Positions 5,659 through 48,666 of a stretch of DNA of 52,248 nucleotides are shown in pieces; position 1 is the first letter of the stretch, and every line of letters starts with the position of its first letter. The stretch lies in the NCBI GenBank assembly GCA_035290125.1, contig DATDVI010000021.1:1-52248 (forward strand), given 5' to 3'. The DNA comes from Candidatus Anderseniibacteriota bacterium. GTDB lineage: Bacteria > Patescibacteriota > Andersenbacteria > UBA10190. Below the pieces are notes generated by a model, which worked only from the letters and a program-made list of their open reading frames with translations, did not search any database and had not been told where the DNA came from. A program made the position numbers and the translations under genes.

Positions 5659-5690
5659 AGTAAGAAAATTTTCTCCGAGTGTTAACGCAC

Positions 5691-5718
5691 CCCCTCGATA
5701 TTACGTAATATCGAGGGG
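5691..5718. repeat. Family A perfect palindrome, copy A1 (28 bp CCCCTCGATATTACGTAATATCGAGGGG)
   Basis: Read directly from the sequence. Perfect 14+14 inverted repeat, 33 nt after the GT2 stop (5658). Left flank TTAACGC is shared with A2; right flank AAAGAGAATC resembles that of A3. Confidence 0.95.
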
Positions 5719-5841
5719 AAAGAGAATCTTTGCTTGGATTGACCTCAGCTGGAGATCAGTTCAAGAAAGGTGGCGAATTTGGATGTTCCGGTATCGCCTT
5801 TGTGCTAATGCACACCGGGTTTTTCACATCGAAGCTTGCCG

Positions 5842-6170: not shown

Positions 6171-6199
6171 ATAATATATCATCTTTAAACTTCTGTCAA
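6171..6199 (-). promoter_or_regulatory. Sigma70-type promoter candidate (TTGACA-N17-TATTAT)
   Basis: Minus strand: TTGACA at 6199..6194, 17-nt spacer gaagtttaaagatgata, TATTAT at 6176..6171. About 80 nt upstream of ATG 6084. Confidence 0.55.
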
Positions 6200-6285: not shown

Positions 6286-6313
6286 CCCCTCGATATTACG
6301 TAATATCGAGGGG
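6286..6313. repeat. Family A perfect palindrome, copy A2 (28 bp)
   Basis: Sequence identical to A1. It lies 15 nt beyond the stop (6328) of the minus-strand GT4. Left flank is TTAACGC-tatat. Confidence 0.95.
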
Positions 6314-6327
6314 ATTTGGGGCAGTGG

Positions 6328-7314
6328 TTAGGCTCGGGTGAGGATGAGGAGATAACTGGCGACCATATTGGCGAGAGAAAATTTTGATTCGGCCGAGGCG
6401 CGGGCGGTGGTGCTATAGGCGGACAGGTTTTGTGCGACTTTCTGGATGGCGCTGGAGAATGCTTGGGCATCGGTCTGCTTAAATTCATAGCGGTCATAGA
6501 ACGGATTGTGCGGCCGCAGGGGCACAAGCTCGCCGGAGCGGCCAGGCTCAACAAGCTCGGGTAATCCCCCGCGGGCATAGGCGACGACGGGCAAGCCGGC
6601 TGCTAAGGCTTCCAGCACGCTGTTCGGGCAGGCAGAGAGCTGCGAGAAGACGTAGATATCGTGCTGTTGTAACGAGTGGCTGATATCTTGGTGCTTGACC
6701 GCGTCTTGGTAGTATATACGCGGGTTCGTTTTGAGCTGGCGAATAAGCTCGTGCAAACGTGGCGTGTGTGGCCCAATGATTGTCAGGGTAAAATTTGGCG
6801 GGAGCTGTAACAACGCATCGCGAAGCGGGGCGATTTGCTCAGGATCCCGAAAGCTAGCGTGTGTGACGAGGCGAATAAGGTAATTGTCGTGGGGTGGGCG
6901 CGCGAGTGCTGGGGTAGCGACGCCATTGCGAATTACTGATGACGCACTGTGCGGCTGGCCCAGCATCGTGTGGCAGGCCTGGCGACTAAATTCGCTCTGG
7001 TACACCACATGATCGGCGAAGTAGTTGTGAATAATTCGCTTGTGCAGATCTTTGAGGCGATACGTCTGCGAGTGCGGCCAGGGGAGAGCTGGATAATAGA
7101 CGCCATCGAGTCGCTGGATGATTTTCTTGCCTCGCGCCCGGGCGTAGAGCGGATAGATTAGGGAACAGGCGTCGATGATAAACAAGCAGTCAAAATTGGG
7201 TGTGAACGTGTGGGTGACGGCATGTCCTCGTTTTTTTAAAGCGGTCGTTAGGGCGGTCAAGAATGTTATGGGCCCGCCAACGGGGAACAGCTGGTAGGGG
7301 ATGAATATTTTCAT
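6328..7314 (-). CDS. Glycosyltransferase family 4 (GT-B)
   Basis: 328 aa. C-terminal EX7E-type block NSVLEALAAGLPVVAYARGGLPELVEPGRSGELV. ATGA overlap with the upstream gene at 7311-7314. Confidence 0.8.
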   Translation of the reverse strand: MKIFIPYQLFPVGGPITFLTALTTALKKRGHAVTHTFTPNFDCLFIIDACSLIYPLYARARGKKIIQRLDGVYYPALPWPHSQTYRLKDLHKRIIHNYFADHVVYQSEFSRQACHTMLGQPHSASSVIRNGVATPALARPPHDNYLIRLVTHASFRDPEQIAPLRDALLQLPPNFTLTIIGPHTPRLHELIRQLKTNPRIYYQDAVKHQDISHSLQQHDIYVFSQLSACPNSVLEALAAGLPVVAYARGGLPELVEPGRSGELVPLRPHNPFYDRYEFKQTDAQAFSSAIQKVAQNLSAYSTTARASAESKFSLANMVASYLLILTRA

Positions 7315-8309
7315 GGTTCAGGCTGGGTGATGACGTTGCGACACGCATTAGTCAGCTGCTGGCCGAACGCAGCGTACGTGTAGCGCTCGGCCTGCTCGCG
7401 AGCGACGCGTTCGTATTGTTCGCGTCTGCCTGGATTAGTGTTTAGTTCTTGGATGGCTGCCCGTAACGCGGCGACATCACCGGCCGGGACCAGCAGGCCC
7501 TGCTGGTCATGTTGGACATAGTCATTGACGCTGGCTTGATCGGTCGTAATAACCGCTTTGCCCAGCGCGAGCGCCTGGACAACGGTCGTCTGTCCGTGCG
7601 GGTGCACGCCGGCAGTAAGTGGGACGATAACGAACAGCGCGTGGTGCATGGCGGCCAGAAAATCTGTTTGTGACATGGTCCAAAAAACGTGGCAATTGTC
7701 CGGCAGAGGTTGATCGTAGTTCAGTGTGCGGCGAGAGAACGTAATGATCATCAGTGAAATTGGCAGCGAGCGTGCAGCTTCAATGAGGGTGGGAAAATCC
7801 CGACCCTCACCGCCGCCGCTAAAAATATACGGCGACTGTACGCTTTGCAAGGCAGCTGGTAGTGCACTCGTGCGCGCAGCGACGAGGTTGCCAGGGGCAG
7901 GGAGGGGGATGACGACACTTTTTCGGCGTGTTTCCGGTGAACGCAGGGTTAGGGTGCTTGAGTCGTGATCAATGACGAGATCGGCATAGCGGACGCGTGC
8001 ATCATGAAAAATGCTGTAGTTGTGACAGATGATTTTGAGCCTGGCGGGGAGTAGGTGATATTTTTTCAGGCTTAGAAACCACGGAGCCAGGCCATAGGCA
8101 GCGCCGATGAATAATATCGTGGGCCGATCTTGCCAGATGCGCCAGTATGTCTGTAGGGCGAGAAGAGCCATATTAAGCAGGCTACTCATTTTTTTAACAT
8201 AGCGGCGACCATACAGTATCTGCGGAAATATTTGGCAGTCCGGTGTTGCCCAGAAGCCCTTGGCGAACGTCACCACGAGTATGTGGTCAAGTTGAGAGGC
8301 TGTTTTCAT
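7311..8309 (-). CDS. Glycosyltransferase, GT-B fold (GT1/GT4-like)
   Basis: 332 aa, ATG at 8309. C-terminal block HGQTTVVQALALGKAVITTDQASVNDYVQHDQQGLLVPAGD, typical of the GT-B nucleotide-sugar binding domain. Confidence 0.7.
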   Translation of the reverse strand: MKTASQLDHILVVTFAKGFWATPDCQIFPQILYGRRYVKKMSSLLNMALLALQTYWRIWQDRPTILFIGAAYGLAPWFLSLKKYHLLPARLKIICHNYSIFHDARVRYADLVIDHDSSTLTLRSPETRRKSVVIPLPAPGNLVAARTSALPAALQSVQSPYIFSGGGEGRDFPTLIEAARSLPISLMIITFSRRTLNYDQPLPDNCHVFWTMSQTDFLAAMHHALFVIVPLTAGVHPHGQTTVVQALALGKAVITTDQASVNDYVQHDQQGLLVPAGDVAALRAAIQELNTNPGRREQYERVAREQAERYTYAAFGQQLTNACRNVITQPEP

Positions 8310-18656: not shown

Positions 18657-18685
18657 AGTATCGAAAATTATCGGTGGACTGTCAA
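18657..18685 (-). promoter_or_regulatory. Sigma70-type promoter candidate (TTGACA-N17-GATACT)
   Basis: Minus strand: TTGACA at 18685..18680, 17-nt spacer, GATACT at 18662..18657. About 60 nt upstream of ATG 18592. Confidence 0.4.
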
Positions 18686-19832: not shown

Positions 19833-19861
19833 ACTGTATGATGCGATAGGGTTGCTGTCAA
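19833..19861 (-). promoter_or_regulatory. Sigma70-type promoter candidate (TTGACA-N17-TACAGT)
   Basis: Minus strand: TTGACA at 19861..19856, 17-nt spacer gcaaccctatcgcatca, TACAGT at 19838..19833. About 40 nt upstream of ATG 19793. Confidence 0.45.
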
Positions 19862-37184: not shown

Positions 37185-37913
37185 ATGCGGCGTGTGTGCG
37201 TGATTATGCCTGCTTTTAATGAATCGGCTTCAGTCGGGCGGGTTATTGAGACAGTGCGGGACGTTTTGCCAGAGGCCCATATTGTCGTTATTGATGATGG
37301 CTCAACAGATGCCACAGCCAGGCTGGCTGAGCGAGCTGGAGCGGTTGTGGTCAGCCTCCCTTTTAATTTAGGCATTGGTGGAGCAGTGCAAACAGGGTTG
37401 AAATACGCTGATCGTGGTGGATTTGATGCGGCAGTAGAAATTGATGCCGATGGCCAGCACGACCCGGCCTTTGCCGTACGCCTAGTGGCTGCGTTGGGGC
37501 GGGAGGCCGATATGGTAATCGGCAGCCGGTTTACGGCTGCCACAACGTATCGGCCTGGCTGGTTACGGCTAGTGGGCATTCGAACATTTTCTTTTCTGAT
37601 TAAGTTGGTTACGGGTAAGCGGGTACTCGATTCAACCTCGGGGTTTCGGGCCTATAACCAGGCAGCGCTGGCCTTTTTGGCCTGGCGGTATCCGGCTGAT
37701 TTCCCGGAGCCGGAATCAATTGTCATGCTGCTGAATGCTGGTTTCAAGATCCAGGAGATTTCGACCGTGATGCAGACACGCCAGGCTGGGGAATCGGTTA
37801 TTGGCCGAAGTGATTTTTCCTGGCGGGCGGCGTATTTTGTGCTGTCGAACGCGATTGCTATTCTGGTCAGTGGCCTCAAAGAAAAACGATCCCTTAAGCA
37901 CCGCGCTGCATGA
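37185..37913 (+). CDS. Polyprenyl-phosphate glycosyltransferase (GT2, DPM1/GtrB/ArnC-like)
   Basis: 242 aa. VCVIMPAFNESASV, IVVIDDGSTDAT, EIDADGQHDP. A C-terminal amphipathic/TM segment is present. Confidence 0.8.
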   Translation: MRRVCVIMPAFNESASVGRVIETVRDVLPEAHIVVIDDGSTDATARLAERAGAVVVSLPFNLGIGGAVQTGLKYADRGGFDAAVEIDADGQHDPAFAVRLVAALGREADMVIGSRFTAATTYRPGWLRLVGIRTFSFLIKLVTGKRVLDSTSGFRAYNQAALAFLAWRYPADFPEPESIVMLLNAGFKIQEISTVMQTRQAGESVIGRSDFSWRAAYFVLSNAIAILVSGLKEKRSLKHRAA

Positions 37914-43940: not shown

Positions 43941-45060
43941 AGCCAGGGCACTGACTGGGCGCGGAGGCGGTACGCGACGCTATGTGAGTGAACTAACTGA
44001 CCAGCTGCGCCGCTTGGTGCCCGAGAATGAGTTAGTCATCCTTGATCGCGGTCCAGCGCATGAGCTGCTCCTGCCCTGGTGGTTTAATGTGACGATGCCC
44101 CGCCGCTTGCGGAAGACGCGGCCCGACATTATCCATTGGACGAAAGGCGCTGTATCGAAGCGAAAGATCGCGCCGACTGTCGTCACCATCTATGACGTTA
44201 TTCCGCTGTTATTTTCCGAATCACAGAAATTGACTGGTCGCTGGTATTGGCCACGGGCGCTGCGCGGTGCCGTGAGAGCTGCGGATCATATTCTGACTAT
44301 TTCTGACGCGAGCAAGCGGGACATTGTGCGCGAGTTAGGTGCGGCAGAGCATAAGATTACCGTCACGCCGCTCGCAATTGACCCAAATGATTTTCACCCG
44401 ACCCGGGCGACTGATTTCGTCGGGCAGATTCGCGCAACGGGACCATACATTCTCTTTGTTGGTACAATTGAGCCGCGAAAAAACGTGCCGCTACTGATCC
44501 GGGCTTTTGCGCGCATCGCCAGCGATATTCCGCACCAGCTTATTATTGCCGGCCGGGCTTACAAGGGCGAGGAGGCTTTACGGAAAGAAATAGCGCGAAT
44601 GAATCTGACTGATCGCGTGCGGAGAATTGGCAGCGTACCGGCGGCTGATTTGCCCGCGCTGTATGCCAGCGCTGATCTCTTCATGTGGCCATCGATCTAC
44701 GAGGGTTGGGGTTTTCCGCCGCAGGAGGCAATGGCGTGCGGCGTGCCGGTGATCGTGAGCGATGGCGGTTCGCTGCCCGAAGTGGTTGGGGAGGCTGGAA
44801 AAGTGGTTTCGTTTAGCGCGCCGCTCAGGGAGCGAATCCATGATACTGATTTCGAGCGACGGCTGGCCGAGACTATGCTTGCCGTGTTGGGTAGCGAAAC
44901 AAGGCGGGTGAGTATGCGGGAAGCCGGCTTAGCACGCGTGAAGCAATTTTCCTGGCAGCGGGTGGCCGAGCAAACACTGGGTGTGTATCAGAAAGTTTTA
45001 AGCGAGGGGAGTGAAAAATCTTCCTCGATATTACGTAATATCGAGGGAACAACGCTATGA
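43924..45060 (+). CDS. Glycosyltransferase family 4
   Basis: 378 aa. MWPSIYEGWGFPPQEAMACGVPVIVSDGGSLPEVVGEAGKVV. The last 12 codons (SSILRNIEGTTL) are encoded by palindrome A4. Confidence 0.85.
   Translation: MRIAIEARALTGRGGGTRRYVSELTDQLRRLVPENELVILDRGPAHELLLPWWFNVTMPRRLRKTRPDIIHWTKGAVSKRKIAPTVVTIYDVIPLLFSESQKLTGRWYWPRALRGAVRAADHILTISDASKRDIVRELGAAEHKITVTPLAIDPNDFHPTRATDFVGQIRATGPYILFVGTIEPRKNVPLLIRAFARIASDIPHQLIIAGRAYKGEEALRKEIARMNLTDRVRRIGSVPAADLPALYASADLFMWPSIYEGWGFPPQEAMACGVPVIVSDGGSLPEVVGEAGKVVSFSAPLRERIHDTDFERRLAETMLAVLGSETRRVSMREAGLARVKQFSWQRVAEQTLGVYQKVLSEGSEKSSSILRNIEGTTL
45023..45046. repeat. Family A palindrome, copy A4 (24 bp core CCTCGATATTACGTAATATCGAGG)
   Basis: Perfect 12+12 inverted repeat inside the 3-prime end of CDS 43924..45060. 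Its right arm GAGGGA lies 9 nt before ATG 45057 of the next gene, an SD-like position. Confidence 0.95.
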
Positions 45061-46313
45061 AATTACTTTTCTTGTCGGCGCATTATCCTCCTCTCGCGCG
45101 CGGGGGCGGGGAAATTTCGACGCATCTGCTGGCGCAGGAGCTCGCGCACCGGGGACACGATGTGCAGGTTATCACCGAGGGCGCGCAACGTGAGGAGAGT
45201 ATGTTGGATGGTGTGAAGATTGTACGTGCGCCGCTGGGGCTAACGAAGAAGCCGTTGTTTGAAGAGCGGGCGAGTAGGAGGATGGCACGAGAGCTTGCAA
45301 AGATTCTTTACGAGTTTAATACCTCACCCCCGCCAATACGGCGGGCAGGCCCAACTCTTGTTCACGCCCACGATTTTCGGTCGGCGCTAGTGCTGAGTGA
45401 GTTGATTCGCATGCAGAAAATCCCAGCCGAGATGGCGTATGTTACGCTCAGGGACTACGCATCTGTTTGCGGTACGACGAATAATATTTTGCGCGATGGC
45501 TCGGTGTGCCATTGCACGATTGCTGATTTGCGGCAGACGCAGCGCTACCGCGAGGCGTGGATTCCGCGGCGGTACGCGCGGCTCTGGCAGTATTGGTACA
45601 ACGTCGGGTATCGCCAGCGCGCCTTTGGCAATATTCCAAATCAGGCGTATATCTCGGCCGCGCAGCGGGATGTGATCTATGGGCAGACTTCTTTTGGCTC
45701 GCTCCGCCACACCGTGATCCACAACCCTGTTCCCGAGACGTATCTGTCGGCTCCTCTGCAGGATGGCAAAGCACATACTGTCCTCTATGCCGGTACGGTG
45801 GAGAACTACAAAGGCGTGGATGTGCTTATCGCGGCTTGGCAGGAAGTGGCCAGGCGGAACCATGAAGCTCACCTTATTATTGTCGGTGAGGGTGCTCAGC
45901 TCTTTACGTATAAGCGCATGGTTGAACGGGCGGGGCTGACGGAGCGAGTTGAGTTTGTTGGCAAGGTGCCGTGGGAGCGTATGCAGCAGATCTATGAATC
46001 TGCCCAGCTGATTGTGGCGCCGCACTGCTGGGTGGAGCCGTTTGGACGCACCGTGGCGGAGGCGATGGCTCTGGGTAAGGTAGTGCTCAGCGCCAACACT
46101 GGCGGGCCGGCGGAGATGATTGAGCATAATAAAAGTGGTTTTTTGTTTGCTCATGGTTCGGCAGAGGCTCTGGCGCAGCACTTAGTCGAAGCGTTGGCCT
46201 TGCCCGTTTTGCGCCGGCGAGAGATGGGCGCTGCCGCTCGGGCGTGGGCAAAAGAACATCTGGCGCCGGATGTGATTGCAAAGCAGTATGAGGAGTTTTA
46301 TACCGCGGCATAG
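45057..46313 (+). CDS. Glycosyltransferase family 4
   Basis: 418 aa, ATGA overlap. LLFLSAHYPPLARGGGEIST start; VAPHCWVEPFGRTVAEAMALGKVVLSANTGGPAEMIEHNKSGFLF. Confidence 0.85.
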   Translation: MKLLFLSAHYPPLARGGGEISTHLLAQELAHRGHDVQVITEGAQREESMLDGVKIVRAPLGLTKKPLFEERASRRMARELAKILYEFNTSPPPIRRAGPTLVHAHDFRSALVLSELIRMQKIPAEMAYVTLRDYASVCGTTNNILRDGSVCHCTIADLRQTQRYREAWIPRRYARLWQYWYNVGYRQRAFGNIPNQAYISAAQRDVIYGQTSFGSLRHTVIHNPVPETYLSAPLQDGKAHTVLYAGTVENYKGVDVLIAAWQEVARRNHEAHLIIVGEGAQLFTYKRMVERAGLTERVEFVGKVPWERMQQIYESAQLIVAPHCWVEPFGRTVAEAMALGKVVLSANTGGPAEMIEHNKSGFLFAHGSAEALAQHLVEALALPVLRRREMGAAARAWAKEHLAPDVIAKQYEEFYTAA

Positions 46314-46321
46314 CTCTTATT

Positions 46322-46401
46322 AAAAGAAAAAACCCGTCTTTCTTTGTACCGAGAAATGCTGAATTCTCAGGAAAATGCTGTGGCATTCTCAGAAAGACGG
46401 G
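46322..46401 (-). terminator. Long compound hairpin + U-tract (terminator candidate for the minus-strand gene)
   Basis: 11-bp outer stem CCCGTCTTTCT (46333-46343) / AGAAAGACGGG (46391-46401). Inner stem GAGAAATGC/GCATTCTC. On the minus strand it is followed by TTTTTTCTTTTA. It lies 112 nt after the stop at 46513. Confidence 0.55.
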
Positions 46402-46512
46402 CCGGGCTGCTGCACTCTTCCGCCGGCTTGTCAACCCGGCGCGCTGACGTGACAGCACTAAAGAAAGAGTACAGACAGGCCCTTATGACCAGAGATCGTT
46501 GCTTGGACTGGG

Positions 46513-46986
46513 CTATGCAAACAGGTCGGCGAAAGAGCTGAGTGAACTGAGGAAGAGGCGGGCGGCCCTGGTTGCTTTCTCGGGGTCGGGTAGATCGCTC
46601 CAGCCGATGCGCCAATCGGGAAAGAGACTGACACGCTGCTTGTTCGCTAACTCTGGGTACTGATGGCGTATGGAGAACCAGAAGAGATATTTAAGTAGCT
46701 CGTATTCTCTCCTTTCATCGGCAATTTTTTGTCCGAGTTGCATGAATGCAGGCACAAGCTTTTCATTCCCGCTTTCCTCGACGTCGGCTTGGCGCCGCCG
46801 ATGCTCATAGACAAGGGTGTTGTGGCTGGTTGTCACCTGGTGGCAATGCATCCAGAGGCGTCGGTGATCAGTGTCGAGGGTGCCAAGAAATTGAAAATTT
46901 TCGGTATCCGGTTGATCACCTACGCCTGGTGCTTTATCCGGAACCACGATTTGCTCCAGGTTTTCAAAGAGCTGTTGGATATACAT
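46513..46986 (-). CDS. Hypothetical protein (157 aa), no recognisable motif
   Basis: ATG 46986 is preceded by GGAGGA at 6-nt spacing; the ORF-track TTG at 47004 lies upstream of that SD. Soluble, His/Arg-rich centre (HRRLWMHCHQVTTSHNTLVYEHRRRQ). AT-richer island. Confidence 0.5.
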   Translation of the reverse strand: MYIQQLFENLEQIVVPDKAPGVGDQPDTENFQFLGTLDTDHRRLWMHCHQVTTSHNTLVYEHRRRQADVEESGNEKLVPAFMQLGQKIADERREYELLKYLFWFSIRHQYPELANKQRVSLFPDWRIGWSDLPDPEKATRAARLFLSSLSSFADLFA

Positions 46987-47033
46987 ACCATTTCCTCCAA
47001 ACAAGTGTGTGGACAGACAGAACGACGCTCCGC

Positions 47034-47062
47034 AGCATAACTGCCGTTTTCTTATCTGTCAA
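47034..47062 (-). promoter_or_regulatory. Sigma70-type promoter candidate (TTGACA-N17-TATGCT)
   Basis: Minus strand: TTGACA at 47062..47057, 17-nt spacer gataagaaaacggcagt, TATGCT at 47039..47034. About 40 nt upstream of ATG 46986. Confidence 0.5.
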
Positions 47063-47081
47063 TTTTGGAAAATACTGGGCC

Positions 47082-47110
47082 TTGACAGGTATCCTTGTTA
47101 GCAGTATAAT
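47082..47110 (+). promoter_or_regulatory. Consensus sigma70 promoter (TTGACA-N17-TATAAT)
   Basis: TTGACA at 47082-47087, a 17-nt spacer, and TATAAT at 47105-47110. Both hexamers are perfect. It is back-to-back with the minus-strand promoter, with the -35 boxes 20 bp apart. Confidence 0.7.
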
Positions 47111-47127
47111 GAACAAGATAGTTGTTC
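47111..47127. promoter_or_regulatory. Inverted repeat GAACAA-N5-TTGTTC overlapping the predicted TSS (operator candidate)
   Basis: Perfect 6+6 arms starting directly after the -10 hexamer. Confidence 0.35.
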
Positions 47128-47135
47128 ATTTTATT

Positions 47136-47145
47136 AGAACGTTCT
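47136..47145. promoter_or_regulatory. 10-bp perfect palindrome AGAACGTTCT in the 5-prime UTR (operator candidate)
   Basis: Shares the GAAC/GTTC half-site with the repeat at 47111-47127. It lies 8 nt before the GGGAGG SD. Confidence 0.3.
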
Positions 47146-47162
47146 TTGAAGGGAGGTGGGCC

Positions 47163-47543
47163 GTGTGCGATGTATTTATTGTGCATGAGCCAGGCGCCAA
47201 GATGGACGCTTTGCGAGAAATGTTTGCCAGGGATGGTGATACAGTCACAGAAATAGCCGTTGGTTCTTGGTCGGAGTACCGGCTTGGTTTGGAATCGGCT
47301 GGACTAGTGGTGATTGATTTGTGTGGTGGTCCCGTAACCGACGCCGCATGGGATGCAGTCGAGTGGCTGGTGTCTTCTGATCAACTTAGGTGCGTACCTG
47401 TGCTCGTCTTGCTGGCCGATGGAAGCCGCGCCGTTCAAGAAGGGGGGCATGTGTATGTGCACCACTTCTCAGACTCTTTGAGTGGCGAAAAACTTGCGCT
47501 GGTGAAGCGTCACCCGTTAACTCTGGAGAGCATATGCGCATAA
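47163..47543 (+). CDS. Stand-alone degenerate receiver-like (CheY-fold) protein, 126 aa; TIR-like fold not excluded
   Basis: GTG 47163 lies 5 nt after GGGAGGTG. The in-frame ATG 47109 sits inside the -10 box. REC-like layout: VFIVHE (beta1, acidic pair degenerate), LVVIDLCGG (beta3 with Asp), PVLVLLAD (beta4, Thr/Ser replaced by Leu), GGHVYVHHFS (beta5, Lys replaced by His). DVFIVH plus AAWDAVEW also resembles TIR betaA and the W-x3-E region. Confidence 0.45.
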   Translation: MCDVFIVHEPGAKMDALREMFARDGDTVTEIAVGSWSEYRLGLESAGLVVIDLCGGPVTDAAWDAVEWLVSSDQLRCVPVLVLLADGSRAVQEGGHVYVHHFSDSLSGEKLALVKRHPLTLESICA

Positions 47544-47598
47544 AAGTTTGTGGTCGAGCCAGCAAAAAAACATGCCCGCCCACTTTTTTTGTAGGAAA

Positions 47599-48666
47599 TC
47601 AGCTTGCAGACACCAGCAGTTTTTTTATTTCATTCAGGACCACATCTGGCTTTAGCTGCTGCAGCGTCGCGTGTGGAGCATTGCCGAGATCGAAGTTTGT
47701 GTTCACATCATAAACCGCTTTCGTGCCAGCAGCACGAATGGTGTAGCTGAGCGACCCGCGCGGGCCGATTTTATTTTCATCGGTGGGGCCAAATAGGCCG
47801 AGAGTTTTTACTCCGGCTGCGGCGGCAAGGTGCATAAGGCCCGAGTCGTTACTGACCATAAGCTCGCAGCGGCGCATGATGGCGGCGGTGGTGAGGAGGT
47901 CGGACGTGATGGGGGTGACACTTGAGGGGGAGGAAATTAAACGTGAGAGTTTTTGCTTAAGTGACTCCTCATCCGGGCCGCCGAAAATTAGGATATGCGC
48001 GCTGTGTTGCTCGATCAGTGTGCGGGCGAGCGCGGCAAAATTTTCCAGCGGCCAGCGCTTCCAGGCAAAGCCGGGTGCAGAGCCAGCGTGCAGGCCAATG
48101 AGCGGCTTATCATGTGGCACGCGGAGTGTGGCGAGCAGCTTGTCGGCTTCGTGATAGTGTGTTTGCGAGAGCGGTAGACTATAGCGTGATTCACCGAGTT
48201 CTGTGTTGATGCCAAGCGGCTGCAATAGATTAAGATTTTGCTCGATGTCATGCACGTTTTCTTTCTCACCTACGGCGTGGGTGAGTAGAAACGTACTGCG
48301 AGGATTTTTCCCCAACAGATACTCATGCCCGACACGCTGCCGAATGCCGGCGGCGTAGAGATACACTGCGCTTTTAATACGTTGACCAGGATACAGCACA
48401 AGGCCAATCGTAAATTTCTGCCGGAAGAGGTGATCGGCGTGACGCAAGTGTTCAAGAAGCGGCCGCTGGTGGGGCGCGATAATCACACGATCAATGTGCG
48501 GATTGCTCTCGGCGAGCGCTTGTGGGAGGCGCGGGGCAACCCAAGCGGTGAGGTGGCTCTGTGGCCAAGACTTTTTAAGGGCGGCGAAAACCGGCGTGTG
48601 CATCAGAAAATTACCAATGCCGGAGAGGGAGAGCAGTAAAATGCGTGGCGCTTTATCGTTGGGCAT
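47599..48666 (-). CDS. Glycosyltransferase family 9 (heptosyltransferase)
   Basis: ATG 48666 (MPNDKAPRILLLSLSGIGNFLMHTPV) overlaps the upstream stop by 14 nt. IGLHAGSAPGFAWKRWPLENF, LIFGGPDEE, and MVSNDSGLMHLAAAAGVKTLGLFGPTD are GT9 hallmarks. Confidence 0.8.
   Translation of the reverse strand: MPNDKAPRILLLSLSGIGNFLMHTPVFAALKKSWPQSHLTAWVAPRLPQALAESNPHIDRVIIAPHQRPLLEHLRHADHLFRQKFTIGLVLYPGQRIKSAVYLYAAGIRQRVGHEYLLGKNPRSTFLLTHAVGEKENVHDIEQNLNLLQPLGINTELGESRYSLPLSQTHYHEADKLLATLRVPHDKPLIGLHAGSAPGFAWKRWPLENFAALARTLIEQHSAHILIFGGPDEESLKQKLSRLISSPSSVTPITSDLLTTAAIMRRCELMVSNDSGLMHLAAAAGVKTLGLFGPTDENKIGPRGSLSYTIRAAGTKAVYDVNTNFDLGNAPHATLQQLKPDVVLNEIKKLLVSAS

Follow-up and report, generated by a model that had tools for sequence, protein, structure and literature searches.

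A lineage-restricted pair of divergent orphan genes, one of them weakly receiver-like, inserted beside a GT9 gene in a glycan-biosynthesis region of a Candidatus Anderseniibacteriota bacterium

The FrzS receiver and the N-terminal domain of KaiA are examples of pseudo-receivers (PsR). A PsR is defined as a computationally identified receiver in which one or more of the five catalytic residues are missing (PMC12632262). The other described systems closest to the locus reported here are TIR-domain defence effectors of the Thoeris ThsB type and the general bacterial layout of divergent regulator/target pairs with an operator on the promoter. The locus is a 1285-bp island at positions 46314-47598 of a 52,248-nucleotide stretch of contig DATDVI010000021.1 (Candidatus Anderseniibacteriota bacterium, assembly GCA_035290125.1), hereafter the window, and it holds two small divergent genes, A and B. 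We establish the anatomy of the island, its insertion, the orphan status of both genes, their strong expression signals and a weak but specific likeness of the B product to receiver (REC) domains. As it stands, this is mainly a clean example of two orphan genes that have textbook expression signals and occupy, as an insert, a variable slot in a conserved gene cluster, and the island reveals no defence system. We tentatively predict, with somewhat less than even confidence, that A and B function as a lineage-specific, phosphorylation-independent accessory or regulatory pair in a glycan region.

Anatomy and expression signals of the island

The island is the stretch between the convergent ends of a GT4 and a GT9 gene, and within it genes A and B are divergent, with a 176-bp control region in between:

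45057-46313, plus strand: GT4 glycosyltransferase gene, whose stop borders the island on the left
46513-46986, minus strand: gene A, ATG at 46986, stop codon at 46513-46515, 157 aa (open reading frame, ORF, and translation)
47163-47543, plus strand: gene B, GTG at 47163, 126 aa (ORF)
47599-48666, minus strand: GT9 gene, whose stop borders the island on the right

A first-pass annotation had described an AT-richer 1.3-kb segment between the GT4 and GT9 gene ends, which agrees with a GC content of 0.506 for the island versus 0.547 for the window and with the flanking stops at 46313 and 47599. The dip is due mainly to the control region (0.426), and the GC contents of A (0.52) and B (0.53) both lie inside the host-gene range of 0.50-0.59. 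Gene callers placed the start of B differently, giving 126 aa in the ENA, Logan and JGI-3300025323 assemblies and 144 aa in the NCBI and JGI-3300002502 assemblies. The NCBI start is ATG 47109, and because this codon has no Shine-Dalgarno sequence (SD) and lies inside the -10 box of the promoter-like site of B, we prefer GTG 47163.

The control region contains the following elements:

46993-46998, minus strand: SD of gene A, GGAGGA, 6 nt ahead of the ATG (sequence read)
47034-47062, minus strand: promoter-like site P_A, TTGACA-N17-TATGCT, 10 of 12 matches, with a 5′ untranslated region of about 40 nt by geometry
47053-47091, no strand: dyad TATCTGTCAA / TTGACAGGTA, 10-nt arms, 90% complementary, 19 nt between
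47082-47110, plus strand: promoter-like site P_B, TTGACA-N17-TATAAT, 12 of 12 matches, perfect
47105-47133, no strand: operator-like palindrome TATAATGAACAA-N5-TTGTTCATTTTA, 12-nt arms, 92% complementary
47151-47156, plus strand: SD of gene B, GGGAGG, 6 nt ahead of the GTG (sequence read)

Two divergent small genes, each with a strong SD (GGAGGA and GGGAGG, both 6 nt from the start), were thus read as the first-pass annotation had them, and a full GGAGG was seen at no other of the 30 gene starts examined, most neighbouring starts having no recognisable SD. The claimed back-to-back promoters are both present (12/12 and 10/12), but their -35 boxes lie 19 bp apart and not 20. P_B is the sole 12/12 sigma70-type match within the window. 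Five sigma70-type sites with at most two mismatches were observed in the window versus 2.0 expected, and the three besides P_A and P_B lie upstream of genes or within an intergenic gap. All five (6171-6199(-), 18657-18685(-), 19833-19861(-), 47034-47062(-) and 47082-47110(+)) have an extended -35 box, TTGACAG, in common. The TTGACAG sites look like the organism's real promoter class and suggest a lineage-specific consensus.

The dyad covers both -35 boxes and is partly accounted for by the two TTGACAG boxes. The palindrome overlaps the P_B -10 box and the expected start site; its core, ATGAACAA-N5-TTGTTCAT, occurs in one exact copy in the window, and two copies with at most three mismatches were found versus 0.15 expected. 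Its place over the -10 box is the classical position of an operator and suggests that the palindrome is one.

Downstream of the genes, structure prediction with RNAfold gave the following:

46321-46403, minus strand: branched hairpin followed by UUUUUUCUUUU, -34.7 kcal/mol, with a U-tract immediately 3′
46404-46482, minus strand: three-way-junction hairpin in the 3′ region of A, -44.4 kcal/mol
47544-47598, no strand: B/GT9 spacer, 55 bp, A7-CATGCCCGCCCAC-T7 between convergent stops, with a weak hairpin (z about 0)

The minus-strand RNA of the 200 nt between the A stop and the GT4 stop (a 216-nt region as folded) folds at -95.6 kcal/mol with z=-7.4, versus z=-3.0 for the plus strand, so that the fold is strand-specific. 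Two branched hairpins form 3′ of A, the second followed by UUUUUUCUUUU, and among 5210 segments of 160 nt across the 52 kb none is more stable than 46321-46480(-). No Rfam family matches this structured region. In the folding model, the hairpin at 46321-46403 with its U-tract likely acts as an intrinsic terminator for transcription of gene A; the B/GT9 spacer is possibly a weak bidirectional terminator. The A-run at 47565-47571, between the B and GT9 stops, differs in length from one assembly of the population to another, with 7 or 8 A. After the RNA 3′ of A, the 160-nt folds that rank next in stability are 5661-5820(+) and 37421-37580(+), with GC-corrected z of -3.4 and -3.6, and the first of these occupies the intergenic gap after a GT2 gene, roughly 0.5 kb from an insertion-sequence site described below.

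Orphan small genes are common in the genomes of such bacteria, and searches placed A and B among them. Neither matched a family at E<=1 in Pfam, NCBIfam or PADLOC, neither matched a PDB entry by sequence, and phmmer of the PDB with B returned no receiver at E<=10. A word-index search of 5.8 billion proteins returned only A and B themselves, and an exhaustive HMMER scan of 1.84 billion representatives with B returned B plus two repeat-protein artefacts (P0004 and P0005). Searches of phages and plasmids by tblastn and scans of viral contigs found no relatives of either gene, tblastn and phmmer found neither in the loci of related bacteria, and PHROGs gave nothing usable, its sole match covering 31 residues (E=0.0038) of a family of unknown function. 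In the databases searched, A and B have no homologue outside one near-clonal population; the first-pass annotation had named a failure of the pair to co-occur elsewhere as grounds against its proposal, and that failure is complete, both genes being absent from these databases outside their own population.

Gene A was read on twelve contigs of that population, and both ORFs are intact on all 12. Eight loci from at least eight samples were fetched (the NCBI metagenome-assembled genome, MAG, GCA_001824355.1 together with JGI, ENA and Logan assemblies), and they are 99.5-100% identical to the window and 99.8-100% identical over the island. Across the 1.5-kb stretch 46201-47700, the population carries two single-nucleotide polymorphisms (SNPs) and one homopolymer indel (47571), all noncoding. 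Both SNPs, at 46356 and 46430, fall in predicted loops of the RNA 3′ of A.

Receiver likeness of the B product and the fold of A

We compared B with a hand-made REC profile, which works because, among the fetched loci, it picked out true receivers (2e-32 and 8.5e-22) in unrelated ones. The HMMER form of the profile scored 6.2 bits against B, a value reached by 1 of 2000 shuffles and by 3 of 1052 same-length real segments of window proteins, and hhalign aligned the two at P=0.0035 over 91 columns (REC 6-102 on B 4-99), with P=0.53 for REC against A as a control. Both weak alignments place Asp52 of B (LVVIDL) at the phospho-acceptor column, at the end of strand 3. In the hhalign alignment, the columns of the Mg2+-binding acidic pair (DD) that follows strand 1 hold His8-Glu9, with one acidic residue kept, the column of the Ser/Thr that closes strand 4 holds Leu84 (PVLVLLA), and little of helix 4 is left. 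The Lys that closes strand 5 falls at His100/His101 (VYVHHF), which we read by following B beyond the aligned columns. Receiver domains make up at least 8 of the 50 best Foldseek matches to B, which are weak (receivers at E=0.26-0.9, TM about 0.25). By these sequence comparisons B is weakly but specifically receiver-like. The CheY-like pattern with a kept Asp proposed earlier therefore stands in the hhalign result and the aligned Asp52, but as a weak match that no curated model recognises, and the proposed replacement of the acidic pocket, Thr and Lys agrees with His8-Glu9, Leu84 and the His at the Lys position in that weak alignment.

Because the acidic pair, Thr and Lys are replaced, B probably acts without phosphotransfer, through protein-protein contacts. 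Pfam lists that cover the window, about 10 kb on its left and about 5 kb on its right contain no partner kinase or phosphotransfer family (HisKA, HATPase_c or Hpt). B was also compared with the flanking glycosyltransferases as a possible degraded copy of a Rossmann domain, and this was rejected, the best BLASTP match being E=2.1 (C-domain of the GT4 protein GT4-418).

It had also been noted that B resembles TIR domains in its N-terminal DVFIVH and in a W-x3-E segment, here Trp63 and Glu67, which would make it a TIR-domain NADase-type effector. This motif resemblance is all that speaks for such an effector. Alignment to four TIR domains by hhalign gave P=0.61 over 13 columns, Pfam and PADLOC models gave no TIR match at E<=1, a HMMER TIR profile gave no score, and no TIR fold is listed among the top 50 Foldseek matches. 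We consider the TIR identity extremely improbable.

The product of A showed no recognisable motif on first inspection, and none emerged, as no family, sequence or fold in any library matched it. Its single-sequence AlphaFold2 (AF2) model is fairly confident, with a predicted local distance difference test (pLDDT) of 69.4 and a predicted template modelling score (pTM) of 0.64. The model has a disordered N-terminus and helices at 39-72, 75-109 and 135-156, the first two of about 35 residues forming a hairpin that is followed by the C-terminal helix, and helix 1 is His-rich (H41, H47, C48, H49, H55, H61). Foldseek of A against the PDB and viral structures (BFVD) gave no match at E<0.1. Matches to ECF-sigma-like viral structures (E=2-5) were taken as noise, and Pfam gave no sigma match.

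These results bear on whether A and B encode functional proteins at all. They might instead be ORFs, either young or in decay, whose protein products escape selection, in a segment whose role, if any, would lie in its DNA or RNA, as a promoter-terminator buffer between two convergent glycan operons or as a minus-strand structured RNA. Their orphan status in sets of 5.8 billion and 1.84 billion proteins would fit, as would the low coding score and low AF2 confidence of B; the RNA fold (z=-7.4) is the most striking quantitative signal of the island, and both SNPs in 46201-47700 lie in the noncoding structured region. Yet two ORFs this long are uncommon by chance: when the island was shuffled with its dinucleotides preserved, 34 of 2000 trials gave a pair with >=157 and >=126 codons. 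A and B hold the only full GGAGG SDs among the 30 starts, at ideal spacing and with well-placed promoters, and both are intact in 12 of 12 contigs. A codon-usage model trained on 42 window genes scored A at 0.131 per codon, which is host-like (real genes 0.146 +/- 0.034), with its own frame best, and A has a confident fold without an alignment (pLDDT 69, pTM 0.64). B scored 0.032, below the 5th percentile of equal-length real-gene segments, with its own frame best of six. Taking both sides, we regard non-functional ORFs as unlikely.

A variable slot beside GT9

The window, together with about 10 kb to its left and about 5 kb to its right (flanks in L031 and L001), forms a single region, more than 60 kb long, for the biosynthesis of glycans and the cell envelope. 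It holds many GT2, GT4 and GT9 enzymes, epimerases, methyltransferases and a carbamoyltransferase, and it also encodes YfhO, an ATP-grasp protein and a Mur-ligase-like protein. Genes for kinases, response regulators or defence were not found in it. Scans with the GT9 protein returned 20 loci, about a dozen of them with the same glycan-cluster layout and a GT9 42-53% identical. These loci either bear the labels of MAGs of Candidatus Andersenbacteria and Saccharibacteria or are related to such MAGs, and the nearest relatives of the source, an uncultured groundwater bacterium, are Patescibacteria MAGs of the Candidate Phyla Radiation (CPR) type.

In seven relatives (L009, L010, L016, L018, L021, L022 and L025), the 3′ end of the GT9 gene abuts or overlaps that of a GT4-418-like gene, and the 1.3 kb of the window is therefore an insertion, in keeping with the self-contained, inserted segment described earlier. 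At the exact junction that holds A and B in the window, L020 has a different ORF, a 130-aa membrane protein at 7128-7520(+). Scattered between glycosyltransferase genes of the relatives are small ORFs (130-159 aa) whose N-terminal segments are hydrophobic, at L020 7128-7520(+), L018 5061-5492(+) and L009 14108-14587(+).

Other small genes adjoin GT9 in the relatives, among them a family that we refer to as 'sm':

L009 9522-9911, minus strand: 'sm' gene, small ORF by GT9
L010 7840-8373, minus strand: 'sm' gene, small ORF by GT9
L016 1018-1467, minus strand: 'sm' gene, small ORF by GT9
L017 364-909, minus strand: 'sm' gene, small ORF by GT9
L021 464-964, minus strand: 'sm' gene, small ORF by GT9
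L018 1983-2468, minus strand: helical ORF (161-176 aa in L018 and L019) filling the GT4/GT9 slot
L019 902-1432, minus strand: helical ORF filling the same slot

The 'sm' proteins of these five loci have 129-181 aa and an alpha/beta composition, and their genes lie antisense to a GT2-GT4-GT9 operon, between GT4 and GT9. Members are mutually significant (best 5e-28; weakest best link, L009-L010, about 2e-5). The family is undescribed, and Pfam, NCBIfam and the PDB yielded no match to it; against REC it aligns in hhalign at P=0.019, in the same register as B. The helical ORFs of L018 and L019 are 92% identical to each other, unrelated to 'sm' and without a Pfam match, and a relationship between A and these ORFs was rejected (hhalign P=0.31). 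Beyond the five 'sm' loci and L018/L019, the other loci have no small gene on that side of GT9. Since the small genes beside GT9 differ among loci, the GT9 neighbourhood is a recurrently variable accessory slot.

B could then be a relocated, fast-evolving 'sm' orthologue and not newly acquired, which would be compatible with a regulatory pair and would alter its origin only. The size class, the antisense orientation and the adjacency to GT9 are alike, the window has no 'sm' gene at the usual place, and B and 'sm' fall on REC in the same register. Their global alignment is collinear with the motifs VxIV, hhhhD, hhLV and G[RH]VxVH in common, and local hhalign gave P=0.033, with GRVYVH against GHVYVH. 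The statistics are nevertheless at chance level: the HMMER score of 2.5 bits is reached by 63 of 2000 shuffles and 43 of 1052 real segments (3-4% of controls), and BLASTP gives E=4.6-38. B also lies on the opposite side of GT9, and absence of 'sm' from the GT4-GT9 junction is common, six other loci also lacking it. Direct similarity of B to 'sm' is not established at the sequence level, and we judge the orthologue explanation somewhat unlikely.

The insertion also bears on the first-pass proposal of an acquired regulatory or conflict (defence- or toxin-type) module rather than glycan chemistry. Surface-glycan loci are under phage pressure, and A and B might be a horizontally acquired toxin-antitoxin or anti-phage pair parked in such a locus. 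That the segment is inserted relative to the relatives, that it has its own strong promoters and SDs where the neighbours differ, and that the codon usage of B is atypical would all suit a conflict module, as would the phage pressure itself. Against it, PADLOC gave nothing at E<=1 and PHROGs nothing meaningful, the phage, plasmid (tblastn) and viral-contig searches were empty, and no integrase, repeat or mobile-element scar was found at the island borders. The neighbours are all glycan genes, a divergent layout is unusual among toxin-antitoxin pairs, the TIR identity is unsupported (hhalign P=0.61), and the pair is known nowhere else, so that no co-occurrence in defence islands can be demonstrated. 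Composition offers little support for recent foreign acquisition because the codon usage of A is host-like, and A for the same reason looks native or long resident, while B is compositionally atypical. Of the proposal, the insert and the weak receiver likeness are supported and the conflict role is not; with PADLOC empty, no phage, plasmid or viral relatives and glycan genes on all sides, we consider a conflict module very unlikely.

Away from the island, a 907-bp element (L030 7050-7956) is present in one ENA assembly of this population and missing from the window at about 6297-6300. It has perfect 18-bp terminal inverted repeats (GAGACCGTTTCGAAATTC) and two overlapping ORFs with matches to DUF4096 (3e-28) and DDE_Tnp_1 (4e-12), which are IS4/5 transposase domains. 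In the window, the unoccupied site reads as the palindrome CGATATTACGTAATATCG. This element is a strain-level insertion-sequence polymorphism.

A regulatory reading and the nearest described systems

We tentatively propose that A and B form a regulatory or adaptor pair that would tune the adjacent glycan machinery or its expression. The insert appears restricted to one lineage, in a variable slot beside GT9, and would be well expressed from its strong signals. B may be a highly degenerate receiver-fold protein that has kept the Asp and lost the other catalytic residues, and would probably work through contacts with other proteins and without phosphotransfer, with the helical-hairpin protein A as its likely partner. 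The two genes may be co-controlled from the one dyad-symmetric 176-bp region, where the palindrome over the P_B -10 box could serve repression or autoregulation at the DNA level, and the large structured terminator after A would insulate the facing GT4 operon. It is from position and layout that we infer the A-B partnership, the operator function and the link to glycan synthesis.

Several points weigh against this proposal. What ties A and B to the glycosyltransferases is their position alone, and no DNA-binding motif or helix-turn-helix that could match the palindrome was detected in A or B. Zero variants occur inside A or B in the sole known population, so purifying selection is not demonstrable. 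The codon usage of B is atypical (GC at third positions 0.52 versus a mean of 0.61). Its AF2 single-sequence model, with the pattern E-H-E-H-E-H-E-E-E, is of low confidence (pLDDT 49.7), and Foldseek with B gave nothing below E=0.15. The REC profile is a rough one, put together by hand from seven well-known REC sequences, hhalign assigns the REC-B alignment a probability of 9%, and the curated receiver models of Pfam and NCBIfam do not recognise B (0 at E<=1). A generic Rossmann-like beta-alpha pattern could make up part of the REC signal.

Surface glycans of ultra-small bacteria are central to host attachment and phage evasion. A bolder extension, which we consider rather improbable, is that B and 'sm' belong to an undescribed class of small, fast-evolving, kinase-independent, receiver-derived regulators hard-wired by GT9 in CPR surface-glycan superclusters, and that in this lineage B gained A, a palindromic operator and a structured RNA to become a self-contained switch varying the cell-surface glycan. 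If true, this would provide a first handle on the control and diversification of surface glycans in ultra-small uncultured bacteria, and would extend the pseudo-receiver class to sequences invisible to curated models.

Set beside known systems, B comes closest to PsR and single-domain atypical response regulators (PMC12632262). Like these, it alternates beta and alpha elements over about 100 residues, closes its third strand with an Asp that aligns to the phosphorylation site, has lost catalytic residues (DD to His-Glu, T to Leu and K to His), and is a stand-alone small protein without a partner kinase nearby. PsR are computationally recognised by definition, whereas B reaches only P=0.0035 with a hand-made profile; in addition, helix 4 is nearly deleted in B, and B has no known relatives. 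Because standard models fail to recognise B, we file it as receiver-like and not as a PsR member.

The 'sm' family likewise resembles B in being alpha/beta and of similar size, antisense to a GT2-GT4-GT9 operon and adjoining GT9, weakly REC-like in the same register, and in having G-[RH]-V-x-V-H near the C-terminus. It differs in lying on the other side of GT9 and in lacking an A-like partner, and its similarity to B is not significant. TIR-domain defence effectors of the Thoeris ThsB type share with B a small alpha/beta form and an N-terminal D-V-F-I-x-H strand; in contrast to them, B has no profile or fold match, and A and B have neither partner sensor or effector genes nor a defence-island context. 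The island departs from divergent regulator/target pairs in that neither A nor B has a detectable DNA-binding domain. Two of its features agree with that layout: promoters placed back to back with 19 bp between their -35 boxes, and a putative operator, the palindrome with 12-nt arms, over the -10 box of one of them.

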